Source: a virus. From it: DNA of 11,793 nucleotides. Made by a program: the position numbers and the translations under genes. This document shows positions 1 through 11,793 of the stretch, piece by piece. Every line of letters starts with the position of its first letter. Positions within the stretch are counted from its first letter, which is position 1. Under the pieces are notes generated by a model. It was not told the DNA's origin. It searched no databases and saw nothing but the letters and a program-made list of their open reading frames with translations. The DNA is taken from IMG/VR virus record IMGVR_UViG_3300022205_000042, positions 1 through 11,793 of that record, one strand, 5' to 3'.

Positions 1-127
1 AAGATCTCTTCTGCTTTTTTTATTGCTGGGAGATTTTTTTCTTCTTTCTCTTCCGTTTGCTCTTCTGTTGTCTCCTCTGTTTGTTTTTCTGTTTCCTTTT
101 GTTGTGTTTCATTGTCTGTCATTTTTA
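1..127. repeat. Terminal direct repeat, copy 1 (identical to 11667-11793). Either a circular-closure overlap or a terminal redundancy.
   Basis: Read directly: 1-127 (aagatctcttctgc...tctgtcattttta) matches 11667-11793 base for base. On the minus strand it duplicates the first 122 nt of the gene at 11459-11788, with the start codon as cat at 120-122. A length of exactly 127 equals a common maximum k-mer in de Bruijn assemblers. Confidence 0.95.
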
Positions 128-1198
128 TTTCTTACCTCCAGAAGCTTCTCCTATTCCTGCTTCCATGTTATTTAACGACCTAGATTTACTTTGATCTTTT
201 TGCATTGTTTGTTCCAAACTTGCTGGGAACTCTAATTCAATTTTTATTCCTAATTGTATTTCGCATTGTTCTTCTATAAATAACTGATTCCATTCTATAG
301 CTTGTTGAAATGCCAGGTACAACATTTTTGCCATTGCTTCAGTATCTTCTTTTTCACCACTTCCAACAATTAATGATGGTACACCTTCAGCTATTATAAA
401 ATCTCTTTCTAATAGTGCAATATAAGGCATAGGATCTAGACTGCTATATTGTGGTATGCTCATTCTTTCCATTGCTTTTAGTGTGTCATGTGGAAGTACT
501 AAATTTTCTCCAAGTTCAACAGCTTTATCTAATTTTAATTTATATGCTGCTATTTCTGTTTCATCGTCTGTGTCTACGTGCGAAATTAGAAGAGGTTTAA
601 CATATCTGTGGAATAGGATCCTTAGATCTCTTTTTGATTCTTTGTAAGCTTCTGCGTTCCATTCCAATTTTTCACAAGTACCATTTCCGTGTATATTGTC
701 TGCAATTGGATTCCATGCCAGGTGAAACATTTGATCAGGTTTCCATCCATGTAAAGTTTTTCCATTAACAAATTGTTCATATCTTTTTATCATTCCTTTT
801 GAATCTGCTATTATTTTTATTGTACCTGGATTAAGTGATTTCAGATTTAATAATTTACCTTTGTGCATTATTTTTTCTGCAAAATAATCACCGCTAATTG
901 TATAGACTTTTACAGCATTATGTAGTATTGTATTGAAGGTCTGTTTACCATTTCCTTTTATTCCCTGTATTGTCTTTTTGTATTTCTTTTTTGCTCTAAA
1001 TCCTTTTCCTACAGTCCACATTGCTTTAGCATCAATTAAAGCTGCAAGTATTGGAACGTCTTTATATACACCGTACCACCTTTCCCACTCTGATTGGAAT
1101 TGCTCTTCGGTTGTTGTAGTGTCTTGATTTGCTGAATATGCAGTAACTACATTCGTCATGTTTGTGTAATCACCAGCTGAAATTTTTCCTTCTCCCAT
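125..1198 (-). CDS. Portal protein (357 aa)
   Basis: Full ORF with a strong SD (AGGAGGTAAAAATG, plus-strand 1199-1212). Portal-like motifs seen by eye are GDYFAEKI..LLNLKSLNPGTIKII.DSKGMIKRYEQ and FHLAWNPIADNIHGNG. It sits immediately upstream of the scaffold-like, DUF2190-like and capsid genes once the circle is closed. Confidence 0.72.
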   Translation of the reverse strand: MGEGKISAGDYTNMTNVVTAYSANQDTTTTEEQFQSEWERWYGVYKDVPILAALIDAKAMWTVGKGFRAKKKYKKTIQGIKGNGKQTFNTILHNAVKVYTISGDYFAEKIMHKGKLLNLKSLNPGTIKIIADSKGMIKRYEQFVNGKTLHGWKPDQMFHLAWNPIADNIHGNGTCEKLEWNAEAYKESKRDLRILFHRYVKPLLISHVDTDDETEIAAYKLKLDKAVELGENLVLPHDTLKAMERMSIPQYSSLDPMPYIALLERDFIIAEGVPSLIVGSGEKEDTEAMAKMLYLAFQQAIEWNQLFIEEQCEIQLGIKIELEFPASLEQTMQKDQSKSRSLNNMEAGIGEASGGKK

Positions 1199-1207
1199 TT
1201 TTACCTC

Positions 1208-2053
1208 CTAAGTTGCATTATTTGCAACTATTGATCCTGTTCCATTATCTGTGACATTTGCAACATTTGCAACACAAACTGTTTTATCTACGCCTGTGTC
1301 AATTAGTATTGTTCCAACAGTTGCACCGTCTCGTGTTCTATTACCTACTATCAAATTGTGTGATGCTGAAGTTAAACTTATTTCATCTAATTCTATGTCA
1401 TTGTCTGTGTTTGCATATGATGAATTGCTGTTTATTGTGCAGTCCCAACTATCTCTTAAATATATTCCATGTTCTGCATTATCAAAAATTTCATTTCCTG
1501 TGATTAATAATGATACACCTACAAATGTTTGTATACCAGCTCCAAAATTATCATGTATTATGTTGTTTACTAAAGTTGTTGATGTAGCTCCTGCTGAAAC
1601 TCTAATTCCATTATCGCCACAATTTTCTATCCAAACGTCATGTATTTTGACTTTTGGACCTCCAAAATTAAATATACCTTCATTTGTAGTATTTCCAGAT
1701 CCTGCGCCATATAACCACAGATTAGAAATAATTACACCTGTTTTTCCATTTATATAGATCATTTGTATGTTTTCAGAAGTTGTTATTTTTGTACCTCTGC
1801 CAGTACCATTAATGGAAACATTATCGTTGTCTATAAAAATTCTTGATGTTATGTCATATATACCTTCTTTTACATGTACTATTCCACCATCAGGTGGCAA
1901 TAAATTCACTGCTTCTTGTATATCGTCTGTGTCTCCAGTTCCATCTTTTGCAACAATAATTGTAGCGTGTCTTTTTTCTTTTCTAATACCAATATCTTTT
2001 TCTCTTTTATCTCTTTTGAAAAGATTAAATGATTCTGGTAGATTTAAAACCAT
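1208..2053 (-). CDS. Right-handed parallel beta-helix (pectate-lyase fold) protein. Possible tailspike, depolymerase or adhesin.
   Basis: The N-terminus IIVAKDGTGDTDDIQEAVNLLPPDGGIVHVKEGIYDI is typical of pectin-lyase-fold proteins. It is followed by PbH1-like repeats (NGIRVSAGATSTTLVNNIIHDNFGAGIQT..ITGNEIFDNAEHGIYLRDS..INSNSSYAN). The fold call is fairly safe; the function is an inference. Confidence 0.65.
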   Translation of the reverse strand: MVLNLPESFNLFKRDKREKDIGIRKEKRHATIIVAKDGTGDTDDIQEAVNLLPPDGGIVHVKEGIYDITSRIFIDNDNVSINGTGRGTKITTSENIQMIYINGKTGVIISNLWLYGAGSGNTTNEGIFNFGGPKVKIHDVWIENCGDNGIRVSAGATSTTLVNNIIHDNFGAGIQTFVGVSLLITGNEIFDNAEHGIYLRDSWDCTINSNSSYANTDNDIELDEISLTSASHNLIVGNRTRDGATVGTILIDTGVDKTVCVANVANVTDNGTGSIVANNAT

Positions 2054-2690: not shown

Positions 2691-4157
2691 TTATGCAACG
2701 AACAATTTAAGTCCTTTGCTTTGCCAAGCCCAACAGCACCTTACGAACGCTTCGGCGAGATGCGTATACTTACCGTGAATTCGTAAGTTTCTGTCTTTTG
2801 TATACTCAAACTGTACGCTCTTCAAACTACGTAATAGCTTCAAGTTATTAATGATTTCTATATCTCCTTTTTCCATCATTGCAAGTGCATTACTGTATAG
2901 ATCCTCTTTGAGGATGCCTTTATTGCGTTCATCAGCTCCGAGACGGATACGCTTGCTAGCATTGTTGAGTCCGATAACTTTCGATTTTCCGAGTTCTTCT
3001 TGTAACAGATCAGTAAGCCCGCCTCCAACTCCTGTGTCATCGTTGAATATTCTTCTGAAGTTAAATTTTGAGTTAAGAGCCAGAGCATAATCTCTGAGGC
3101 TAGTGATAGCTTTTCCTGATATTTTTTTCTTTTCATCACAGTAAACCACCTTGTATTTTTTTCTTAGCATTTCACCAGCTACGAATGCAGCTTCGTCCTG
3201 ACCATATCTTGCAGGATCCATTCCCATGTAGTATGACGCGTTTGGATTATGATCTTTTTCTATGTCCCAGTTCATAAATGTCATACATTTCTTTATAAGG
3301 CTTGTCGGGAAAAATTGATTGAAATCGTCTGTAAATTCTGCCAGGTATTCTTGAGCATATTCTGCTTTGTTTAGTCTTTCTTTTTCTTTTGCCAAATAAT
3401 CTCTAGGGATTCTTGGACACATTTCTGAGCTTATATGCCAGTGTCTATAATCTTTGTCATAACAACAGTTGTAAAAGAATCCGCCTTTTCCAAATGGTGT
3501 TGATAGTAGTATGTCCCAGCCTAGTCCTCTTTTTTCTTTTTGGACTGCAAGCATTGGGTTTGTTGCAAGCCAGACCTCTTCAGGGATAAATGCAGCTTCA
3601 TCTGCTATCCTAAAATCTATGGTAAGCCCTCTTATGTATGCTCCTGTTTTTCCCGCAGGAAGCGAATATATGACGTATTCTTCGTCTCTTCTGAAATACT
3701 CCCAATCATTATCGCTTTCTAGTTTTCCCCAATTTGAGAACTTTTTAAGCCTTATCTCTGTTTTTGTAGGCATATTGTCAAAGACTCCCCAGCGTTTTTC
3801 ATGTTCCTTTTTCATAATTTTATTTTGCCTGGCTGATTTTTCAAGATCTTCTCTATATTTACCTTTCATATTTACAACAAAATCATTGAATCTTAGCAAT
3901 CTGGCCAGAACTTTATTAAAGATCAAGCCAGATTGTCTTTGAGAAGCTGCAATCATTAATGTTACTGTATTTTGGTATTTTAAAGATATCTTAGCTGCTT
4001 TTCTTGCAATAACAGTTGATTTTCCTACTTGTCGCCCACAACGTAATGCACAATCTCCTTCATGGTCCATGACCTGAATTTGCCACTTATCCAGAGCCAT
4101 ATCTGTCTCTTTTTCAAGTTCCTCGAATCTTAGATATAAGTCGTACCAGTTGTTCAT
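2691..4157 (-). CDS. terL: Terminase large subunit (488 aa)
   Basis: Walker A is CGRQVGKST, Walker B is IDFRIADEAAF, and the coupling motif is LSTPFG. RNase-H-like nuclease motifs are MGMDPARYGQDEAAFV, NDDTGVGGGLTDLL and the C-terminal HLAEAF. The start overlaps the upstream ORF stop (ATGA). Confidence 0.92.
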   Translation of the reverse strand: MNNWYDLYLRFEELEKETDMALDKWQIQVMDHEGDCALRCGRQVGKSTVIARKAAKISLKYQNTVTLMIAASQRQSGLIFNKVLARLLRFNDFVVNMKGKYREDLEKSARQNKIMKKEHEKRWGVFDNMPTKTEIRLKKFSNWGKLESDNDWEYFRRDEEYVIYSLPAGKTGAYIRGLTIDFRIADEAAFIPEEVWLATNPMLAVQKEKRGLGWDILLSTPFGKGGFFYNCCYDKDYRHWHISSEMCPRIPRDYLAKEKERLNKAEYAQEYLAEFTDDFNQFFPTSLIKKCMTFMNWDIEKDHNPNASYYMGMDPARYGQDEAAFVAGEMLRKKYKVVYCDEKKKISGKAITSLRDYALALNSKFNFRRIFNDDTGVGGGLTDLLQEELGKSKVIGLNNASKRIRLGADERNKGILKEDLYSNALAMMEKGDIEIINNLKLLRSLKSVQFEYTKDRNLRIHGKYTHLAEAFVRCCWAWQSKGLKLFVA

Positions 4158-4354: not shown

Positions 4355-4475
4355 CAATGACTCTAAGATTTGCTTCAGCCATTCTTTGTGTTAATTGTGC
4401 TTGTCTCCACATATTCACTGCTGTATCTCTAGCGTTTTGCCAGTCCATTTCTTCTAATTTAACCAAAATTTTCAC
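4269..4475 (-). CDS. Hypothetical helical protein (up to 68 aa); start uncertain
   Basis: The track start is GTG at 4475, inside a GAGGTG that more likely serves as an SD. The alternatives are TTG at 4466 and ATG at 4448 (MDWQNARD...). No family recognised. Confidence 0.4.
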   Translation of the reverse strand: MKILVKLEEMDWQNARDTAVNMWRQAQLTQRMAEANLRVIDEELKKIWDKLPENERNKRYADNKKNLH

Positions 4476-4725
4476 CTCTTTTTATAAATCTCTCTAGTTT
4501 AACATTGAATTGTGTATATGATGCGAGAATGTTTTTTAATTCTAGTATTTCTTCTCTTTGATCTTCAATAATTTTACTCATATCATTGATTTTTTGAATT
4601 TGATTTTTAATAATACCTGGTGTTGCAAGAAATGCTTTTGACATTGCTTTTTCATCTAGTGTGATCATTAATTCATTGATTTCTTTTTCTTTCTCATCAT
4701 CGTATCTTATTGTCATTCCTTTCAT
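4459..4725 (-). CDS. Possible ribbon-helix-helix DNA-binding protein with a coiled-coil tail (88 aa)
   Basis: The N-terminus TIRYDDEKEKEINELMITLDEKAMSKAF looks like a beta strand plus helix-helix of CopG/Arc type. The C-terminal half is heptad-like (IEDQREEILELKNILAS). It could also be a small-terminase-like protein. Inference only. Confidence 0.35.
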   Translation of the reverse strand: MKGMTIRYDDEKEKEINELMITLDEKAMSKAFLATPGIIKNQIQKINDMSKIIEDQREEILELKNILASYTQFNVKLERFIKRGENFG

Positions 4726-4740
4726 TTTGATTGTAAATTC

Positions 4741-5391
4741 TCCCCCCCATCCCCCCTCTAGGGAATTAAGGTACGTTCTCTGCGTGCTTACGTCGCCGAA
4801 GGCGGGCTGCGCGAAAAATTTCTGTGTGTGTTAGGCTTTATTATCATAATCATAAAAAATATTTCTCTAGACACCTGGTTATGGGGGTGTTTTTGTTTGA
4901 AAGTCGCTAATAAGAGGAAGGACGTTGTCTCTATAAGCACCAAAACACCATAGAATATGGTGTTTTGGGGTGTTGTTGTTGTATATTTGGGGGTATTTGG
5001 GGTGTTGTTGTTGTGTTTGAGGCTTGGTTTTGCCTCAATAAAGCCCCCCCGGAGGGGGGGTTGGGGGGGACGAGCTCCCGACTTTGATAAGCTGAGACCT
5101 TGTCTCAGCATCTTTGACCCCGACCTAAAGCAGCGACGTTCCCCCTTCCCTTCAGGGAAGGGGGTTAGGGGGATGGGTGATATCATATAGCCGTGTAATT
5201 CATACCGTAGTCTTGTTCTCGGTAATGAATTATGCGGGACACAAGCGTTGTTCGAATTAAGCGCTGTGGATCGTGAAGACCGAAGGGATGAGGGACTGCG
5301 AATTTGGAGCGTATTTAGGTCGGGGGAAGGGTAGCTTTCCCCTTGACAAAATCTATTTTGTCTCGACACCAGGTGTATTCCTGCGACCGCG
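4741..5391. other. ORF-poor, GC-rich, highly self-complementary element: candidate large structured ncRNA and/or replication origin, class unknown
   Basis: Hand-counted GC is about 48% (57-67% across 5041-5160), against about 35% in flanking genes. Local hairpins: 4940-4968 (13 bp), 5044-5060 (C7/G7), 5091-5109 (8 bp), 5141-5164 (10 bp), 5323-5342 and 5345-5362. A 12-bp perfect long-range complement joins 5118-5129 and 5314-5325. The only long ORFs here have atypical, low-complexity translations. Confidence 0.55.
4964..5014. repeat. Two perfect 19-bp direct repeats TTTGGGGTGTTGTTGTTGT (4964-4982 and 4996-5014), period 32 bp
   Basis: Read directly. The repeats are separated by atatttgggggta. 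They lie about 100 bp from an AT-rich stretch (about 4838-4867, containing ATCATA x2). Confidence 0.85.
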
Positions 5392-5646
5392 TCAAAAGTA
5401 TTCGTCTTGTGTGGGTGACAACTTAAATCTTCTTGTCGGATGCACTCCAAATTCTCTCACCTTGTCTACTTCTTCCATTAGTTTCAGCCTGATCATTATC
5501 TCAATTGACTTTTTTACTGTTCTAGGATCTATGCCAATTTCAATAAATATTGCATCTTCCAATGCTTTAATGTTGAATGGTTCACTTTGGAATTCTTCCC
5601 TTATTCTCTGGGCTACTCTTTTATATTTGACTAATCCTTTGCTCAT
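5392..5646 (-). CDS. Putative winged-helix DNA-binding protein (84 aa)
   Basis: The segment NIKALEDAIFIEIGIDPRTVKKSIEIMIRLKLMEEV looks like helix-turn-helix plus wing. The start overlaps the stop of the upstream zinc-ribbon ORF (ATGA). The fold call is by eye. Confidence 0.45.
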   Translation of the reverse strand: MSKGLVKYKRVAQRIREEFQSEPFNIKALEDAIFIEIGIDPRTVKKSIEIMIRLKLMEEVDKVREFGVHPTRRFKLSPTQDEYF

Positions 5647-5801
5647 TCAAATTCACTTAATTTATTATGTTTGCTATCTTTTATATATTTATCGGTTGCG
5701 TACCATCCCCTTTTGCAATCTTTACACCTTACATGATGCCATATATTTATCAATTTATGACCGTCTGCAATCAAAGTACCATTACAGTTGCTACAGATCA
5801 T
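5643..5801 (-). CDS. Small zinc-ribbon protein (52 aa, MICSNCNGTLIADGHKLINIWHHVRCKDCKRGWYATDKYIKDSKHNKLSEFE); not in the supplied ORF track
   Basis: Hand translation. The ATG is cat at 5799-5801, overlapping the upstream gene end by 11 nt. The TGA stop overlaps the next ATG. It has CxxC...CxxC spacing and fills an otherwise unexplained 144-nt gap in a tightly packed operon. Confidence 0.5.
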   Translation of the reverse strand: MICSNCNGTLIADGHKLINIWHHVRCKDCKRGWYATDKYIKDSKHNKLSEFE

Positions 5802-6192
5802 CAATTTTTATCTCTTCAGCAGGATCTTGATGTTCTTTTAAACTCTCTGCAGGTCTGACTGTATTTTCATCAACTCTTGAAAAGGTTCCTTTTGCATTTT
5901 CCTCTGTTTTTGTTTTAAACTTTATTTTCTTTCCAATGATTATATCATCTGGATCTATGGAAACTCCTTCAATTAACTTTTCTCCAAATCTCATCAATAA
6001 TTGACCTAATTTGGATTTTTCGCTTATAACTTGTGGGTAACCAGCTCTAATTTTTATTTGTTCATCATCAACTTTAAATTCTATTTCCAGATCTACATAT
6101 TCAAAAGGTTTAGATCTATATCTTATATTTGTCACAACTCCCAAATGTTCGCCATCTGGAATAATGATTGCTTTTTTTACTTCTAGCTTCAT
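5791..6192 (-). CDS. DUF669-like protein (133 aa); possible OB-fold ssDNA-binding protein
   Basis: The pattern IPDGEHLGVVTNIRYRSKPFEYVDLEIEFKV..IKIRAGYPQVISEKSKLGQLLMRFG resembles phage DUF669 proteins as I remember them, with an acidic C-terminal tail. It is the first gene after a strong promoter-like element, with SD AGGTGA. The family call is tentative. Confidence 0.35.
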   Translation of the reverse strand: MKLEVKKAIIIPDGEHLGVVTNIRYRSKPFEYVDLEIEFKVDDEQIKIRAGYPQVISEKSKLGQLLMRFGEKLIEGVSIDPDDIIIGKKIKFKTKTEENAKGTFSRVDENTVRPAESLKEHQDPAEEIKIDDL

Positions 6193-6224
6193 TTTATCAC
6201 CTATTTCAAAGAAAATGCAATCAT

Positions 6225-6243
6225 ATTTATAAATTTTGCTATC
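6225..6243 (-). promoter_or_regulatory. BRE/TATA-like promoter GATAGCAAAATTTATAAAT for the 133-aa/zinc-ribbon/wHTH operon
   Basis: Minus-strand reading of plus atttataaattttgctatc. The TATA centre is about 37 nt upstream of the ATG at 6192, and the SD AGGTGA lies between them. It is near-identical to the element at 11440-11457. Confidence 0.6.
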
Positions 6244-6275
6244 AAAATAACACTTTTTGGTAGTATGTATGTCAT

Positions 6276-6356
6276 CACTGCGAAGCAGTGTTTAGAAAGA
6301 AATTAGATTTCAGGAAAACCGAAGTTTTCCCTCAATCTGTTTTCTGCATCAGAAAA
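6276..6356. other. Three tandem perfect hairpins in the large non-coding region
   Basis: Hairpin 1 is 6276-6290 (cactgc gaa gcagtg). Hairpin 2 is 6313-6330 (ggaaaac cgaa gttttcc), which on the minus strand reads as a C(UUCG)G tetraloop. Hairpin 3 is 6340-6356 (ttttctg cat cagaaaa). Their function is unknown. Confidence 0.6.
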
Positions 6357-6400
6357 TAATCAATTAGAATATATAAATCTTTCTATCCTGCAAACACAAA

Positions 6401-6410
6401 GTATATATAC
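6401..6410 (+). promoter_or_regulatory. TATA-like box (gtatatatac) about 26 nt upstream of the plus-strand ATG at 6432; candidate leaderless promoter
   Basis: The spacing from the TATA centre to the ATG is about 26-27 nt, which matches archaeal TATA-to-TSS spacing. No SD lies between them. The region is AT-rich, so chance TATA-like strings are common. Confidence 0.35.
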
Positions 6411-6431
6411 AACAATACAAAAGGACAATTT

Positions 6432-6569
6432 ATGCAGATATTGTATAAAAACAGTTTTCTAGAATTTCTAAGAAGAGGGAAACCTTCTGACACTTATACC
6501 CTCTATGTTGCAAAGGTGAGTAATTTTCTAAATTCTCTAATTTGCAGGGTAGAGAAGGGGCAAAGATAA
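6432..6569 (+). CDS. Plus-strand mini-ORF (45 aa, MQILYKNSFLEFLRRGKPSDTYTLYVAKVSNFLNSLICRVEKGQR). Resembles the N-terminal SAM-like core-binding segment of tyrosine recombinases; could be a remnant or a small regulator.
   Basis: Hand translation. The pattern F-LEFL-R-G-S-DT---Y---V--FL resembles the XerC/D and phage-integrase N-terminal motif. No catalytic domain follows. It is the only plausible plus-strand gene. Confidence 0.3.
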   Translation: MQILYKNSFLEFLRRGKPSDTYTLYVAKVSNFLNSLICRVEKGQR

Positions 6570-6638
6570 CTTAGATAACTAACTGTTTTTACTATTATAA
6601 AATAGTCCTAATTCTCTAATTATATAATAATAATAGTA

Positions 6639-6661
6639 GGGGGGTTTGGGGGGATTTTTTT
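6639..6661 (+). terminator. GGGGGGTTTGGGGGG followed by T7: possible oligo-T terminator for the plus-strand mini-gene
   Basis: Read directly: G6 at 6639-6644, G6 at 6648-6653, T7 at 6655-6661. There is no complementary C-run for a bacterial-type hairpin, so only an oligo-T (archaeal-style) termination model fits. Confidence 0.3.
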
Positions 6662-6872
6662 CTTTGCATAGGAAATGAAGGTTTTATAAAGAAAACTATT
6701 ATGATAGCATTATGGTGATTGCAAGATCTTCCAGGAGAGTAATTTTGCTATCAATTTAAAGATGGCCAGAATTTATTCGAAGAAAAAATGCCATCACTGG
6801 AAAGCATCACCAAAACCAGTGACGGCAAAATGTTATATTTTGATTAAATAGGGTGGTCTTTTTGATGTAAAT

Positions 6873-7127
6873 CTATGTTAATTTAGCAATTCCTGATCTA
6901 AGACCCATAAAAGCCAATCCTTCAAGTATTGTTCTTACCCCTTCTTGTTGTCCTAACTTGCCAAGAAATAGCCCTAATAAGCCCCATACGATTAGTCCAA
7001 AGCCAATTGCGTATGTTCTGTTACCTTCAAGTTCTTTGAAAATATGAACTATTGCATTATGTTCACTTTTTTTACTTTTATTTTTTAGATGTAATTCAAC
7101 ATCAATTTCAGTTTCTTTTTTATCCAT
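6873..7127 (-). CDS. Small membrane protein (84 aa); a holin-like role is possible
   Basis: It has the hydrophobic helix YAIGFGLIVWGLLGLFLGKL, a second amphipathic segment, and a charged N-terminus. It is the last gene of the long minus-strand operon and overlaps the upstream gene by 8 nt. Confidence 0.5.
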   Translation of the reverse strand: MDKKETEIDVELHLKNKSKKSEHNAIVHIFKELEGNRTYAIGFGLIVWGLLGLFLGKLGQQEGVRTILEGLAFMGLRSGIAKLT

Positions 7128-10128: not shown

Positions 10129-11001
10129 TTAAGCCCTCGTGTTAGAAATTAAGCATATTGCTTCGGGATCTGTGAGTTGTGTTACTCCAATTTCCCATGC
10201 TCTTACTACTGTGTGAACTCCTGGTTCTCTTTTTGTAACTACTGTTAGCGGATCAACTGCTTTCCATGTAGCAGCTTGTTTTTTTATGCCTACCATAGCA
10301 TAATCTGCTGTTACATTGTTGCTTTTTATTACGTCTAAACCGACTAATCTTCCGATTTTTCCGTTTCTTGTGACATCATCAGTCCAGAACTGACCTGCAT
10401 TTCTGACGTTTGCATTACCAAGCAATTTTGCAATGTCGGTTCCATTCGCTATGAAGAAACCGTCTGAGTCAGGATCATAGTTATCTGCATCTATAAGAGC
10501 TTTTGCGTCTAGTAGATTTTGAATAGGATCTCTATTTGCAACAGTTGCTGAATCCCATTCAGAGCCTGCTGCTATTGCAAGACTGTTAATGTTTGATGGA
10601 CTTTGACTTTCTGAGATTACATCCCAAATTTCAGCGTCTACTGATTTAACAACTCCTCTTGCTATTCTTAAGAGTGTTCTTGCTATTACATCAACAGCAT
10701 TTGTTTTCTCATCTTCGTATGAGATAACACCTTGTAAACCATGTTTAACTTGTCTACTGCTTTGTTTTGTCCAGGTTACTTCTGCATGAGGAAATTTAGC
10801 TAGTCTAGCTACTCCTTTTACATTTCTTGTTCCGCTTGCAGAAAGATCTGCTGCGGTTTCTTGGTAGTAGCTTTCAGTCCATGCTGAACTACCAACTGTC
10901 ATAACCAATGCTTTAAATTTATAATTTGCTAAAGCAAATCCTTTAACTATTCTTGAAACATTTTCTGCCCTTAAATCTGCCATTCCTGTTGAGTCTGCCA
11001 T
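10129..11001 (-). CDS. Major capsid protein, HK97-fold type (290 aa)
   Basis: Its position directly follows the scaffold-like and DUF2190-like genes, and both its size and composition are typical of compact HK97-fold capsid proteins. The SD AGGTG is embedded in the end of the upstream gene. The family call rests on context and general resemblance. Confidence 0.7.
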   Translation of the reverse strand: MADSTGMADLRAENVSRIVKGFALANYKFKALVMTVGSSAWTESYYQETAADLSASGTRNVKGVARLAKFPHAEVTWTKQSSRQVKHGLQGVISYEDEKTNAVDVIARTLLRIARGVVKSVDAEIWDVISESQSPSNINSLAIAAGSEWDSATVANRDPIQNLLDAKALIDADNYDPDSDGFFIANGTDIAKLLGNANVRNAGQFWTDDVTRNGKIGRLVGLDVIKSNNVTADYAMVGIKKQAATWKAVDPLTVVTKREPGVHTVVRAWEIGVTQLTDPEAICLISNTRA

Positions 11002-11404: not shown

Positions 11405-11439
11405 CAAAACACCTCAATTAAAAAAATAATTGAAACTAG

Positions 11440-11457
11440 TATATAAATTTTGCTATC
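11440..11457 (-). promoter_or_regulatory. BRE/TATA-like promoter GATAGCAAAATTTATATA for the capsid/fibre operon
   Basis: Minus-strand reading of plus tatataaattttgctatc. The TATA centre is about 40 nt upstream of the ATG at 11404, with GAGGTG between them. It lies in the only gap (51 nt) between the scaffold-like and DUF2190-like genes. Confidence 0.6.
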
Positions 11458-11458
11458 T

Positions 11459-11788
11459 TTAGTCAGGGAACGCCATTTTCTCAAATCCAGTTCCTTTTAG
11501 CAAATTTTTTGCACCTTCAATTTCTTTTTCTTCCTCAGTAGGTTGATGTACTTGACCAAATCCGCCCATCTTTGCCTCTGCAGCTGCTTTATCAAATTCC
11601 TGTATTTTTAGATCTAATGCTTTTTCTTTTTCTTCTAGAGCTTTTCCTCTATCTTCAATTTTCTGCAAGATCTCTTCTGCTTTTTTTATTGCTGGGAGAT
11701 TTTTTTCTTCTTTCTCTTCCGTTTGCTCTTCTGTTGTCTCCTCTGTTTGTTTTTCTGTTTCCTTTTGTTGTGTTTCATTGTCTGTCAT
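11459..11788 (-). CDS. Scaffolding-like protein (109 aa), highly charged and coiled-coil
   Basis: It has a Glu/Lys/Thr/Gln-rich N-terminus and heptad-like helices (AEEILQKIEDRGKALEEKEKALDLKIQEF). It lies between the portal gene (across the circular junction) and the capsid genes. Its first 122 nt are duplicated at 1-122. Confidence 0.5.
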   Translation of the reverse strand: MTDNETQQKETEKQTEETTEEQTEEKEEKNLPAIKKAEEILQKIEDRGKALEEKEKALDLKIQEFDKAAAEAKMGGFGQVHQPTEEEKEIEGAKNLLKGTGFEKMAFPD

Positions 11789-11793
11789 TTTTA
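11667..11793. repeat. Terminal direct repeat, copy 2 (identical to 1-127)
   Basis: See copy 1; exact 127-nt identity read directly. Confidence 0.95.

Follow-up and report, generated by a model that had tools for sequence, protein, structure and literature searches.

The stretch of DNA analysed here, referred to as the window, is the whole of the IMG/VR virus record IMGVR_UViG_3300022205_000042 (11,793 nucleotides, nt), and the element under study is a GC-rich region of about 650 base pairs (bp) at positions 4741-5391, situated between a winged-helix gene and a gene for a protein of 88 amino acids (aa) that starts at 4725. The first and last 127 bp of the window (1-127 and 11667-11793) are identical, and it therefore corresponds to a complete circular (or terminally redundant) genome of ~11,666 bp. 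Every credible gene is carried by the minus strand, among them one for a decoration protein and the following:

125-1198, minus strand: portal protein
1208-2053, minus strand: beta-helix tail-spike-like protein
2691-4157, minus strand: large terminase (TerL)
10129-11001, minus strand: major capsid protein

When the ten larger products were compared with Pfam and PHROGs, no polymerase, Rep, integrase or other replication family was matched. By TerL, the closest cultured relative is Halogranum tailed virus 1, with 27.5% identity. A scan of IMG/VR with the window TerL as the single query protein returned no relatives; TerL relatives at E <= 1e-10 numbered 2148 among 8000 scored candidates, many of them on contigs of 11-12 kb, revealing a large, uncultured lineage of minimal tailed viruses. 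With ~11.7 kb, the window genome is about as small as tailed phages are reported to get (11.6 kb; bioRxiv 10.1101/2025.06.18.659913). Literature searches gave no description of this virus group or of the element, and the bin labels of the relatives, just two (Elusimicrobiota and Glassbacteria) and unreliable, were discarded as a host clue.

The composition of the element differs clearly from that of its surroundings, with a GC content of 0.488 over 4741-5391 and 0.617 over 5041-5160 compared to 0.345 in the rest of the genome, in agreement with the values of ~48%, 57-67% and ~35% that an earlier note on this DNA had estimated, and the GC skew flips sign within it. When both strands were folded, minimum free energies of -258.6 kcal/mol (plus strand, z -5.6) and -210.9 kcal/mol (minus strand, z -7.0) were obtained, and none of 20 dinucleotide shuffles reached so low a value for either strand. 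The six local helices and three long-range complements that the earlier note had listed are all present, one of the local helices being a pair longer than described (11 bp):

4940-4952 with 4956-4968: local helix of 13 bp, a perfect hairpin (4940..4968)
5044-5050 with 5054-5060: local helix of C7 with G7
5091-5098 with 5102-5109: local helix
5141-5151 with 5154-5164: local helix of 11 bp
5323-5328 with 5337-5342: local helix
5345-5351 with 5356-5362: local helix
5118-5129 with 5314-5325: long-range pair, 12 of 12 positions
4741-4756 with 5055-5070: long-range pair, 94% complementary
4871-4879 with 5368-5376: long-range pair, 9 of 9 positions

The GC-rich stretch is real and not a product of chance. 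The three long-range pairs are not of equal weight. That between the tracts at 4742-4756 and 5054-5069, claimed as nearly complementary, is found in the window but is unconserved beyond its closest relatives. For the perfect 12-mer pair 5118-5129/5314-5325, a chance expectation of ~0.01 had been put forward, whereas ~0.24 perfect pairs of 12 bp with spacers of 100-300 nt are expected in the whole genome, and the pair is not significant alone. It gains significance because it is the positional homologue of perfect closing helices of 14-21 bp in related viruses, and it will be called P1.

The relatives used were contigs with a TerL of 85-61% identity (L002-L009 and L127-L134), 80 metagenome loci (three at 65-72% TerL identity, the rest at ~44-53%) and the contigs L135-L138, found via the winged-helix protein. 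Wherever they have upstream sequence the order is constant, with the winged-helix gene (whose product ends in ..EYF in relatives) followed by the GC-rich element, small genes and TerL, and GC-rich segments upstream of TerL are seen also at ~50% TerL identity. The length of the element varies from 337 to ~830 nt, and nucleotide similarity between elements is limited to short patches, even with L137, the TerL of which is 85% identical to that of the window. In this element the following parts of a folded core were identified:

5118..5325, minus strand: core multi-helix domain P1-P5 of 208 nt, defined by a covariance-model match, covariation and folds of relatives
5314..5325, minus strand: 5' arm of P1, CCCCGACCTAAA, pairing with 5118-5129
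5118..5129, minus strand: 3' arm of P1, TTTAGGTCGGGG, pairing with 5314-5325
5251..5263, minus strand: conserved motif CGCTTAATTCGAA
5191..5239, minus strand: TCCCG junction and then hairpin P4, an inverted repeat in which both sides change in 5 of 8 pairs
5140..5182, minus strand: ATATCAC-CCATCCCCC-TAA-[CCCCCTTCCCT-GA-AGGGAAGGGGG]-AACG, a C-tract and then hairpin P5, a member of the C(n)-NN-C(n)-loop-G(n) motif family

Across viruses the core measures ~180-240 nt, and P1 encloses 140-250 nt. P1 is perfect everywhere, while its sequence is unrelated from virus to virus. Its length is 12 bp in the window, 14 bp in L137, 19 bp in L012, 20 bp in L004, L009, L131 and L134 and 21 bp in L138, and at ~50% TerL identity it reaches 19 bp in L033 and 20 bp in L062 and L069. 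Sixteen P1-like closing helices were measured, and 9 of them, all among the 11 given here, have 19-21 bp; the chance expectation for a perfect pair of 19 bp is ~2e-5 per genome. Inside P1 the sense strand reads, in this order, P2 ending in GGTCT, a segment with CGCTTAATTCGAA, (C)ATCCCG, P4, ATATCA, a C-tract, a spacer, P5 and (A)ACG. P4 has a fixed base (CCG/CGG) and a covarying interior, the spacer between the C-tract and P5 is 2-3 nt long, and P5 is made of a C-tract and a G-tract of equal length. The conserved junction motifs GGTCT, CGCTTAATTCGAA, (C)ATCCCG and ATATCA-C(n) are unpaired. The core is followed by one to three further modules, all with C(n)-NN-C(n)-loop-G(n) at their end.

An alignment of the cores with MAFFT was rejected, as it mis-aligned the variable helices, and therefore a covariance model built from a single sequence, that of L012, was used. 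This model matched five viruses at E values from 1e-33 to 5e-7, with 117 bits in L009, 46 in L134, 35.5 in the window (5321-5122, minus strand; E 2e-8), 34 in L004 and 31 in L131. Two distant loci were matched at E ~4e-3 in a search of 66 sources (4e-4 when searched within six sources), whereas on the antisense strand nothing was matched apart from the palindromic self-match of L012 and one match of 7 bits (E 5.9). In the alignment derived from the model, 89.9% of the cells are paired compared to 65.7% in shuffles, and two-sided changes affect 28 of the 42 pairs (vs. 13.6 in shuffles and 6-13 with the partners slid), including 17 of the 19 pairs of P1, figures that are somewhat inflated because the model had fitted the alignment to the structure. 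The independent search for perfect repeats that also detects P1 is free of this bias. Thus the comparison among homologues that the earlier note had recommended, like its shuffle control, came out on the side of a fold, with covariation in P1 and P4. What had been described as a large structured RNA stands as a conserved, covarying core of ~200 nt and not as one RNA of 650 nt.

The motifs of the element are distributed very unevenly between the strands. C(n)-N(1-5)-C(n)-loop-G(n), with n = 4-7, appears in 23 distinct forms on the gene-sense strand vs. 2 on the antisense strand, and the three tracts are equal in length in 21 of the 23 sense forms. Where tracts are interrupted, the upstream tract has A at the position where the stem strand has T (L004, L134 and L131). 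In 573 kb of related loci, T[TA]AATTCGAA is found 10 times in sense and never in antisense, every copy lying inside an element and the loci including some with a TerL identity as low as ~48%. Together with TTAATTCGAA and TCCCG, which recur likewise in the sense strand, the conserved motifs are all on the minus strand, the sense that had been proposed for the element. From one to three C-tract hairpin modules are present per element. As the upstream C-tract equals the stem strand in length, it is matched to the same G-tract, which suggests either that two hairpins alternate or that three strands associate, and a purine-motif triplex is conceivable for the complementary strand, C(n)-loop-G(n)-NN-G(n). 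A pure G-quadruplex at G(n)-NN-G(n) was ruled out, since the instances with n = 4 are unable to form one, and a pyrimidine-motif triplex at neutral pH was rejected also, as runs of protonated C are unfavourable and the interrupted tracts have A where T would be needed. An invertible segment was discarded too: a recombinase is lacking, the inverted repeats are unconserved in sequence and the interior has a single orientation. A BoxA/nut-like site, suggested by a resemblance of TGCTCCTTTAA, was considered too and dropped. The above results establish the fold, its conservation and its strand.

The assignment of the element to no known class was upheld. Rfam 15 gave no match at gathering score in the window or in 15 relatives, the best sub-threshold matches in 4600-5550 (E 0.2-9) belonged to unrelated families, none of which recurred inside the element in six relatives, and ARAGORN detected no tRNA or tmRNA in the window and none inside the element in 27 relatives. 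In view of these data, a strongly diverged representative of a known class (riboswitch, ribozyme, Y-RNA-like, ROOL/GOLLD-like or phi29-type packaging RNA, pRNA) that the covariance models missed is very improbable, despite a multi-helix junction with conserved junction nucleotides and a viral location that ROOL, GOLLD and pRNA share; moreover, the TerL is a canonical nuclease-type terminase, unlike the pRNA-dependent motor. Sequence searches aimed at the element were equally negative: blastn of 4600-5500 found no match in GenBank phages, the exact patterns TTTAGGTCGGGGGAAGGGTAGC and GCGACTTTCAAANNAAAACACCCCC found nothing in IMG/VR, CGCTTAATTCGAA..TCCC found there only chance matches in coding regions of unrelated viruses, and GAATAYTTNTRAC..CTGGTGTC found there only L012 and L011 again plus chance matches. 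The latter pattern had 29 matches in a genome collection, of which the six inspected were due to chance, and the titles of the other records were those of unrelated cellular genomes.

The element is also traversed by a long reading frame:

4788..5450, minus strand: stop-free frame of 220 codons, 193 counted from a GTG

The earlier note had treated this frame as incidental, a view that did not hold. Stops are absent from it, whereas the other two frames have 12 and 11, and a length of 220 codons was not reached in any of 500 dinucleotide shuffles. The frame is preceded by a Shine-Dalgarno (SD) sequence, AGGAA, a spacer of 7-8 nt and a GTG at 5369, where the gene caller began a gene of 193 aa. 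Open frames likewise longer than expected by chance are found at the same place in L008 (296 codons), L129 (257), L131 (222), L009 (206), L137 (185) and L134 (167), the frame being open in 7 of 10 close relatives, and its end overlaps the start of the next gene as ATGA in L008, L129 and L131. An ordinary, fast-evolving and probably disordered protein of 193-220 aa, with the helices incidental or secondary, would account for these signals and for the calls of gene callers, and yet we regard it as improbable. Codon periodicity, which had been named beforehand as the sign that would speak against a structured RNA, is not seen: differences per codon position are flat, from 0.33/0.20/0.35 up to 0.52/0.42/0.47, whereas in the winged-helix gene and TerL of the same genome pairs they amount to ~0.13-0.31 at position 2 vs. 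0.46-0.68 at position 3. The only match of the frame product among 5.8 billion clusters was itself, in a word-based search by which distant relatives could be missed. The frame is of just 30 codons in L012 (whose element is nucleotide-identical in three samples), of 106 in L004 and absent from L138, with the folded core intact in all three, and stops occur in all three frames in relatives at ~50% TerL identity. Flat substitutions, lack of a homologue, loss of the frame and these stops argue against a conventional protein, and coding constraint would leave the virus-specific perfect inverted repeats of 19-21 bp unexplained. To judge from these comparisons, the frame appears to be selected to stay open, i.e. 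to be translated, without encoding a conserved protein. Gene callers annotate a 'hypothetical protein' of 150-300 aa here, which is probably not a conventional protein.

The region is a composite, made of a start-site motif, the 208-nt core, extra hairpin modules, a conserved block of 45 nt, an AT-rich tract and a leader. After the core, the order in the sense strand is the hairpin 5109-5091, the motif 5069-5037, another hairpin, repeats, the 13-bp hairpin, the 45-nt block, the AT-rich tract and the leader. Besides those of the core, its parts are:

5365..5382, minus strand: 5' boundary motif AGGAAT-ACACCTG-GTG-TC, with the SD-like AGGAA, the 7-8 nt spacer and the GTG at 5369-5367
5091..5109, minus strand: hairpin GCTGAGAC-AAG-GTCTCAGC
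5037..5069, minus strand: C7-AA-[C7-TCC-G7]-CTTTATT, a second C-tract/hairpin motif and then a T-tract
4877..5012: three iteron-like direct repeats of ~21 nt, GGTnTTTGGGGTGTTKTTGTT on the plus strand, at 4877, 4960 and 4992
4864..4909, minus strand: conserved block of ~45 nt, TAGCGACTTTCAAA..CACCCCC..AACCAGGTGT-CTAGAGA, which aligns in the window, L004, L008, L137 and L138
4833..4866, minus strand: AT-rich tract GAGAAATATTTTTTATGATTATGATAAT, resembling the TTGAAAGATTTTTATAAG that precedes the next gene in L036 and L048
4726..4832, minus strand: leader of the 88-aa gene, with a small GC hairpin and a G6-AT-G7 tract (4742-4756)

The boundary motif makes at the same time a near-palindrome, ACACCTGGTGT, and is located ~20 nt past the winged-helix stop in L004, L008, L009, L012, L134, L137 and L138; the conserved 5' 'palindrome' ACACCTGGTGTC and the AGGAA or GAGGAA ahead of it can be read as an SD, a spacer and a GTG start. 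A near-identical counterpart of the 5037..5069 motif is present in L138. This motif provides the one terminator-like hairpin with a T-tract (5060-5037, minus strand), and the homologous hairpins of relatives are followed mostly by (A)ACG and not by a T-run. The 45-nt block includes a second copy of CCWGGTGT, and a dyad ACACCWGGT with a G-string and then the AT-rich tract occupies 4833-4909. From its sequence, the AT-rich tract may be a promoter or a T-tract terminator. The earlier note saw no promoter in front of the gene at 4725. There is a weak sigma-70-like match at 4869-4840 (minus strand), but promoter-like matches in 4400-7000 are no commoner than in shuffles. The double G-tract of the leader, GGGGGGATGGGGGGG (4742-4756, minus strand), lies 17-31 nt upstream of the ATG of the 88-aa gene and is conserved in L137 and L138; its complementarity to the C-tracts at 5054-5069 and 5168-5177 may allow long-range pairing with these, or else the tract may mask the SD.

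Direct repeats are found inside other elements as well. A 15-nt direct repeat, GCTCCCTRCGGTCGC, is present four times in L008 (2029-2415), in an iteron-like array, and twice in L129 (3625-3700), and L009 (1770-1990) has three tandem copies of a 75-nt unit, each of them made of three GC-rich hairpins. A CRISPR array or a mimic of its repeats does not describe the window, where the 21-nt repeats are imperfect and spaced by 83 and 32 nt and the C-tract hairpins differ from each other and are irregularly spaced.

Breaks at shared points, inside or beside the element, are seen in contigs assembled independently from different samples: L135 and L136 end at the equivalent of position 897 of L137, the start of L002 and L003 falls in a (GGCTCT)n repeat located 83 nt ahead of TerL, and L007 starts 2 nt into P1. 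The repeats and hairpins probably caused these shared breaks by interrupting assembly, physical genome ends being another possibility. Near the element, a DEDD (RNase T/DnaQ-like) exonuclease gene is located just upstream of TerL in L004 (5725-6270), L008 (3522-4085), L129 (4545-5099) and L134 (2992-3546), whereas the window has no such gene and carries small zinc-ribbon-like genes at that place. In the distant relative L082, a tRNA-Pro(TGG) (5556-5650) is encoded just upstream of TerL, roughly where others have the GC-rich element.

GC-rich palindromes within an AT-rich genome, a module number of 1-3, a variable length, a fast turnover and a frame that tolerates the palindromes could also be the marks of selfish elements in a tolerant spacer, comparable to the GC clusters of yeast mitochondria or the palindromic elements of Rickettsia and without function for the virus. 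We give this explanation little weight, slightly less even than the protein gene. There is one syntenic locus per genome and never a copy elsewhere in it, the orientation is fixed, and the core architecture and the junction motifs are kept from 85% to ~48% TerL identity. In a genome at the lower size limit of tailed viruses dispensable DNA should come at a cost, and the element occupies ~5.5% of this one. A miniature inverted-repeat transposable element or other mobile palindrome disagrees with the data for a related reason, as the inverted repeats vary while the interior is conserved.

We tentatively favour, with a confidence that stops somewhat short of an even balance, the reading of the element as a structured RNA of a new kind that acts in cis where the upstream small genes give way to the terminase/structural operon. 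In support of an RNA are the one-directional transcription unit, the fixed orientation, the multi-helix junction with conserved unpaired nucleotides and the translation signals. The upstream small genes (for 133 aa, 53 aa and the winged-helix protein) would be early and the terminase/structural operon late. The element would act in cis on the polycistronic sense RNA, with P1, of about two helical turns, as a processing or insulating duplex; through it the upstream message would be detached or made more stable, and the core would be freed or displayed. Expression of the packaging genes downstream might then be gated by the core and the C-tract hairpins, either through binding of a factor from the virus or the host or through switched pairing with ribosome-binding regions rich in G. 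In the subclade of the window, ribosomes starting at the conserved SD-GTG may translate through the element, which would couple its folding to translation.

Several findings weigh against this reading, in addition to the structure-fitted alignment mentioned above. The P1 helices, ~250 bp in total, are free of G-U wobbles, and the alignment as a whole has just 2 U-G cells, and as a consequence both strands fold about equally well; helices of Watson-Crick pairs only are unusual for RNA and leave room for a function at the level of single-stranded DNA. A count of G-U vs. A-C mismatches, meant to pick the functional strand, did not discriminate (23 vs. 26), most of the imperfect stems counted being probably spurious. 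The primary sequence turns over so fast that, bar the motifs, elements are unalignable even at 85% TerL identity, and the position of the C-tract motif relative to P1 varies, inside in most relatives and outside in L008 and L137. Translation of the open frame would also unfold the structure. Finally, the iteron-like direct repeats, the palindromic sites and the adjacent gene for a DNA-binding winged-helix protein fit a role at the DNA level.

Such a role is the alternative that we consider possible, while doubting it: a replication origin or a packaging/recognition region, the hairpins of which would form in single-stranded DNA and the repeats and palindromes of which would bind the winged-helix protein or host initiators, as in archaeal origins with origin recognition boxes (ORBs) and G-strings, in plasmid single-strand origins or in the cos/pac sites upstream of terminase genes. 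The open frame would then only keep ribosomes on the transcript, avoiding termination in a long untranslated stretch, and this would agree with its unconstrained amino acids. The strictly Watson-Crick helices, with no one-sided G-U change in P1, and the equal folding of both strands suit this alternative, and so do the direct repeats of the window (three), L008 (four) and L009 (three). The dyad, G-string and AT-rich tract at 4833-4909 recall archaeal ORB origins, the best fold matches of the neighbouring winged-helix protein (84 aa, predicted local distance difference test score, pLDDT, of 73) are winged-helix domains of the origin recognition complex (ORC), if weak (E 3e-3), and no replication family was matched among the ten larger products. 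The winged-helix protein was nevertheless set aside as a clue to function, its fold being generic and without a specific functional match.

On the other side, a junction of four or five helices with unpaired motifs that are conserved, closed by a helix across 200 nt, is atypical of origins and pac sites, and the extrusion of a cruciform over a spacer of 150-200 nt is unlikely in duplex DNA. Archaeal origins are AT-rich, flanked by ORBs and located beside an initiator gene (PMC4010727), whereas in the window the ~490 nt between two dyads consist of GC-rich hairpins, the reverse of an unwinding element, and the AT-rich tract of ~35 nt adjoins just the 3' dyad. There is no adjacent Orc1/Cdc6 (AAA+) gene, the neighbour coding for the winged-helix protein, nor was a Rep protein found. 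The AT-rich region at 6193-6872, described below, would be a more natural origin.

Returning to the cis-acting RNA, we also considered a more specific and rather unlikely proposal, that the core represents a new class of regulatory RNA or a dual RNA/DNA element, which would combine the module of three equal tracts, as a triple helix or a toggle, with a closing helix of ~20 bp free of sequence constraint, and in which translation-gated folding would time the switch to packaging genes. To our knowledge, neither the equal-length three-tract module nor the ~20-bp sequence-free closing helix has a described counterpart. If true, this would be a timing switch in a virus too small for dedicated protein regulators. 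In any case, the genome economy is striking, about one-twentieth of ~11.7 kb (the ~5.5% given above) being devoted to the element and kept across a widespread uncultured lineage, and, as a covarying domain outside Rfam, the core is an immediate candidate for a family of its own. The trio of features is unusual: helices of Watson-Crick pairs only with a full turnover of sequence, poly-C and poly-G tracts of equal length, and a frame that is open and unconstrained in its amino acids.

Upstream of the element there is a second non-coding region, at 6193-6872, of ~680 bp and AT-rich (GC ~0.29), between the last structural gene and the first upstream small gene. It holds an 11-bp inverted repeat, TAAAAACAGTT, with a span of 146 nt, the positional equivalents of which are TAAAATTAGAT/G in L009, L012 and L127, and it is a candidate origin or promoter region. 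GATAGCAAAATTTATA(A/T)A is present twice in the minus strand, at 6203-6243, upstream of the first upstream small gene, and at 11417-11457, upstream of the decoration and capsid genes. These copies, like the TTGAAAGATTTTTATAAG of L036 and L048, would seem to resemble an archaeal B recognition element (BRE) and TATA box more than a sigma-70 promoter. The first gene of the upstream block (5791-6192, minus strand) encodes a product of 133 aa that has no family match; the pattern of this product, judged by eye, is beta-rich and might correspond to an oligonucleotide/oligosaccharide-binding (OB) fold like that of a single-stranded-DNA-binding protein.

Among known systems, the element resembles ROOL and GOLLD (RF03087 and RF01998) in being virus-borne, several hundred nt long, GC-rich relative to its host and composed of many helices. 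It differs from them in giving no covariance-model match, in its core of ~200 nt, in its perfect Watson-Crick helices and in the frame that is open through most close relatives. Stems cleaved by RNase III, such as those of the T7 early mRNA and of rRNA operons, likewise use a duplex of ~20 bp, independent of sequence, to close a folded segment between gene blocks, whereas P1 has 12 bp in the window and 14 bp in L137 and the interior has conserved motifs that such sites do not need. Most archaea are not known to have RNase III, and thus if the host is archaeal this role for P1 is less likely.

With archaeal ORB origins, in which the G-strings of haloarchaeal ORBs are essential for origin function (PMC4010727), the element shares a dyad ACACCWGGT and then GGGGGTG, an AT-rich tract, repeated copies and an adjacent winged-helix gene, but its body consists of GC-rich hairpins and not of an unwinding region, and covarying long-range helices are not a feature of ORBs. 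Plasmid single-strand origins of the ssoA type and integron attC sites are orientation-specific too, and in them the folded single-stranded form is conserved along with few short motifs; they are simpler, imperfect hairpins, tied to rolling-circle Rep proteins or to integrases, neither of which was matched among the products scanned here. In systems of the type of the Rev response element of the human immunodeficiency virus (HIV), the protein is conserved, whereas here the amino acids are unconstrained and the frame is missing in some relatives, but that element, like the one described here, places a long closing stem and a multi-branch domain inside a translated frame.

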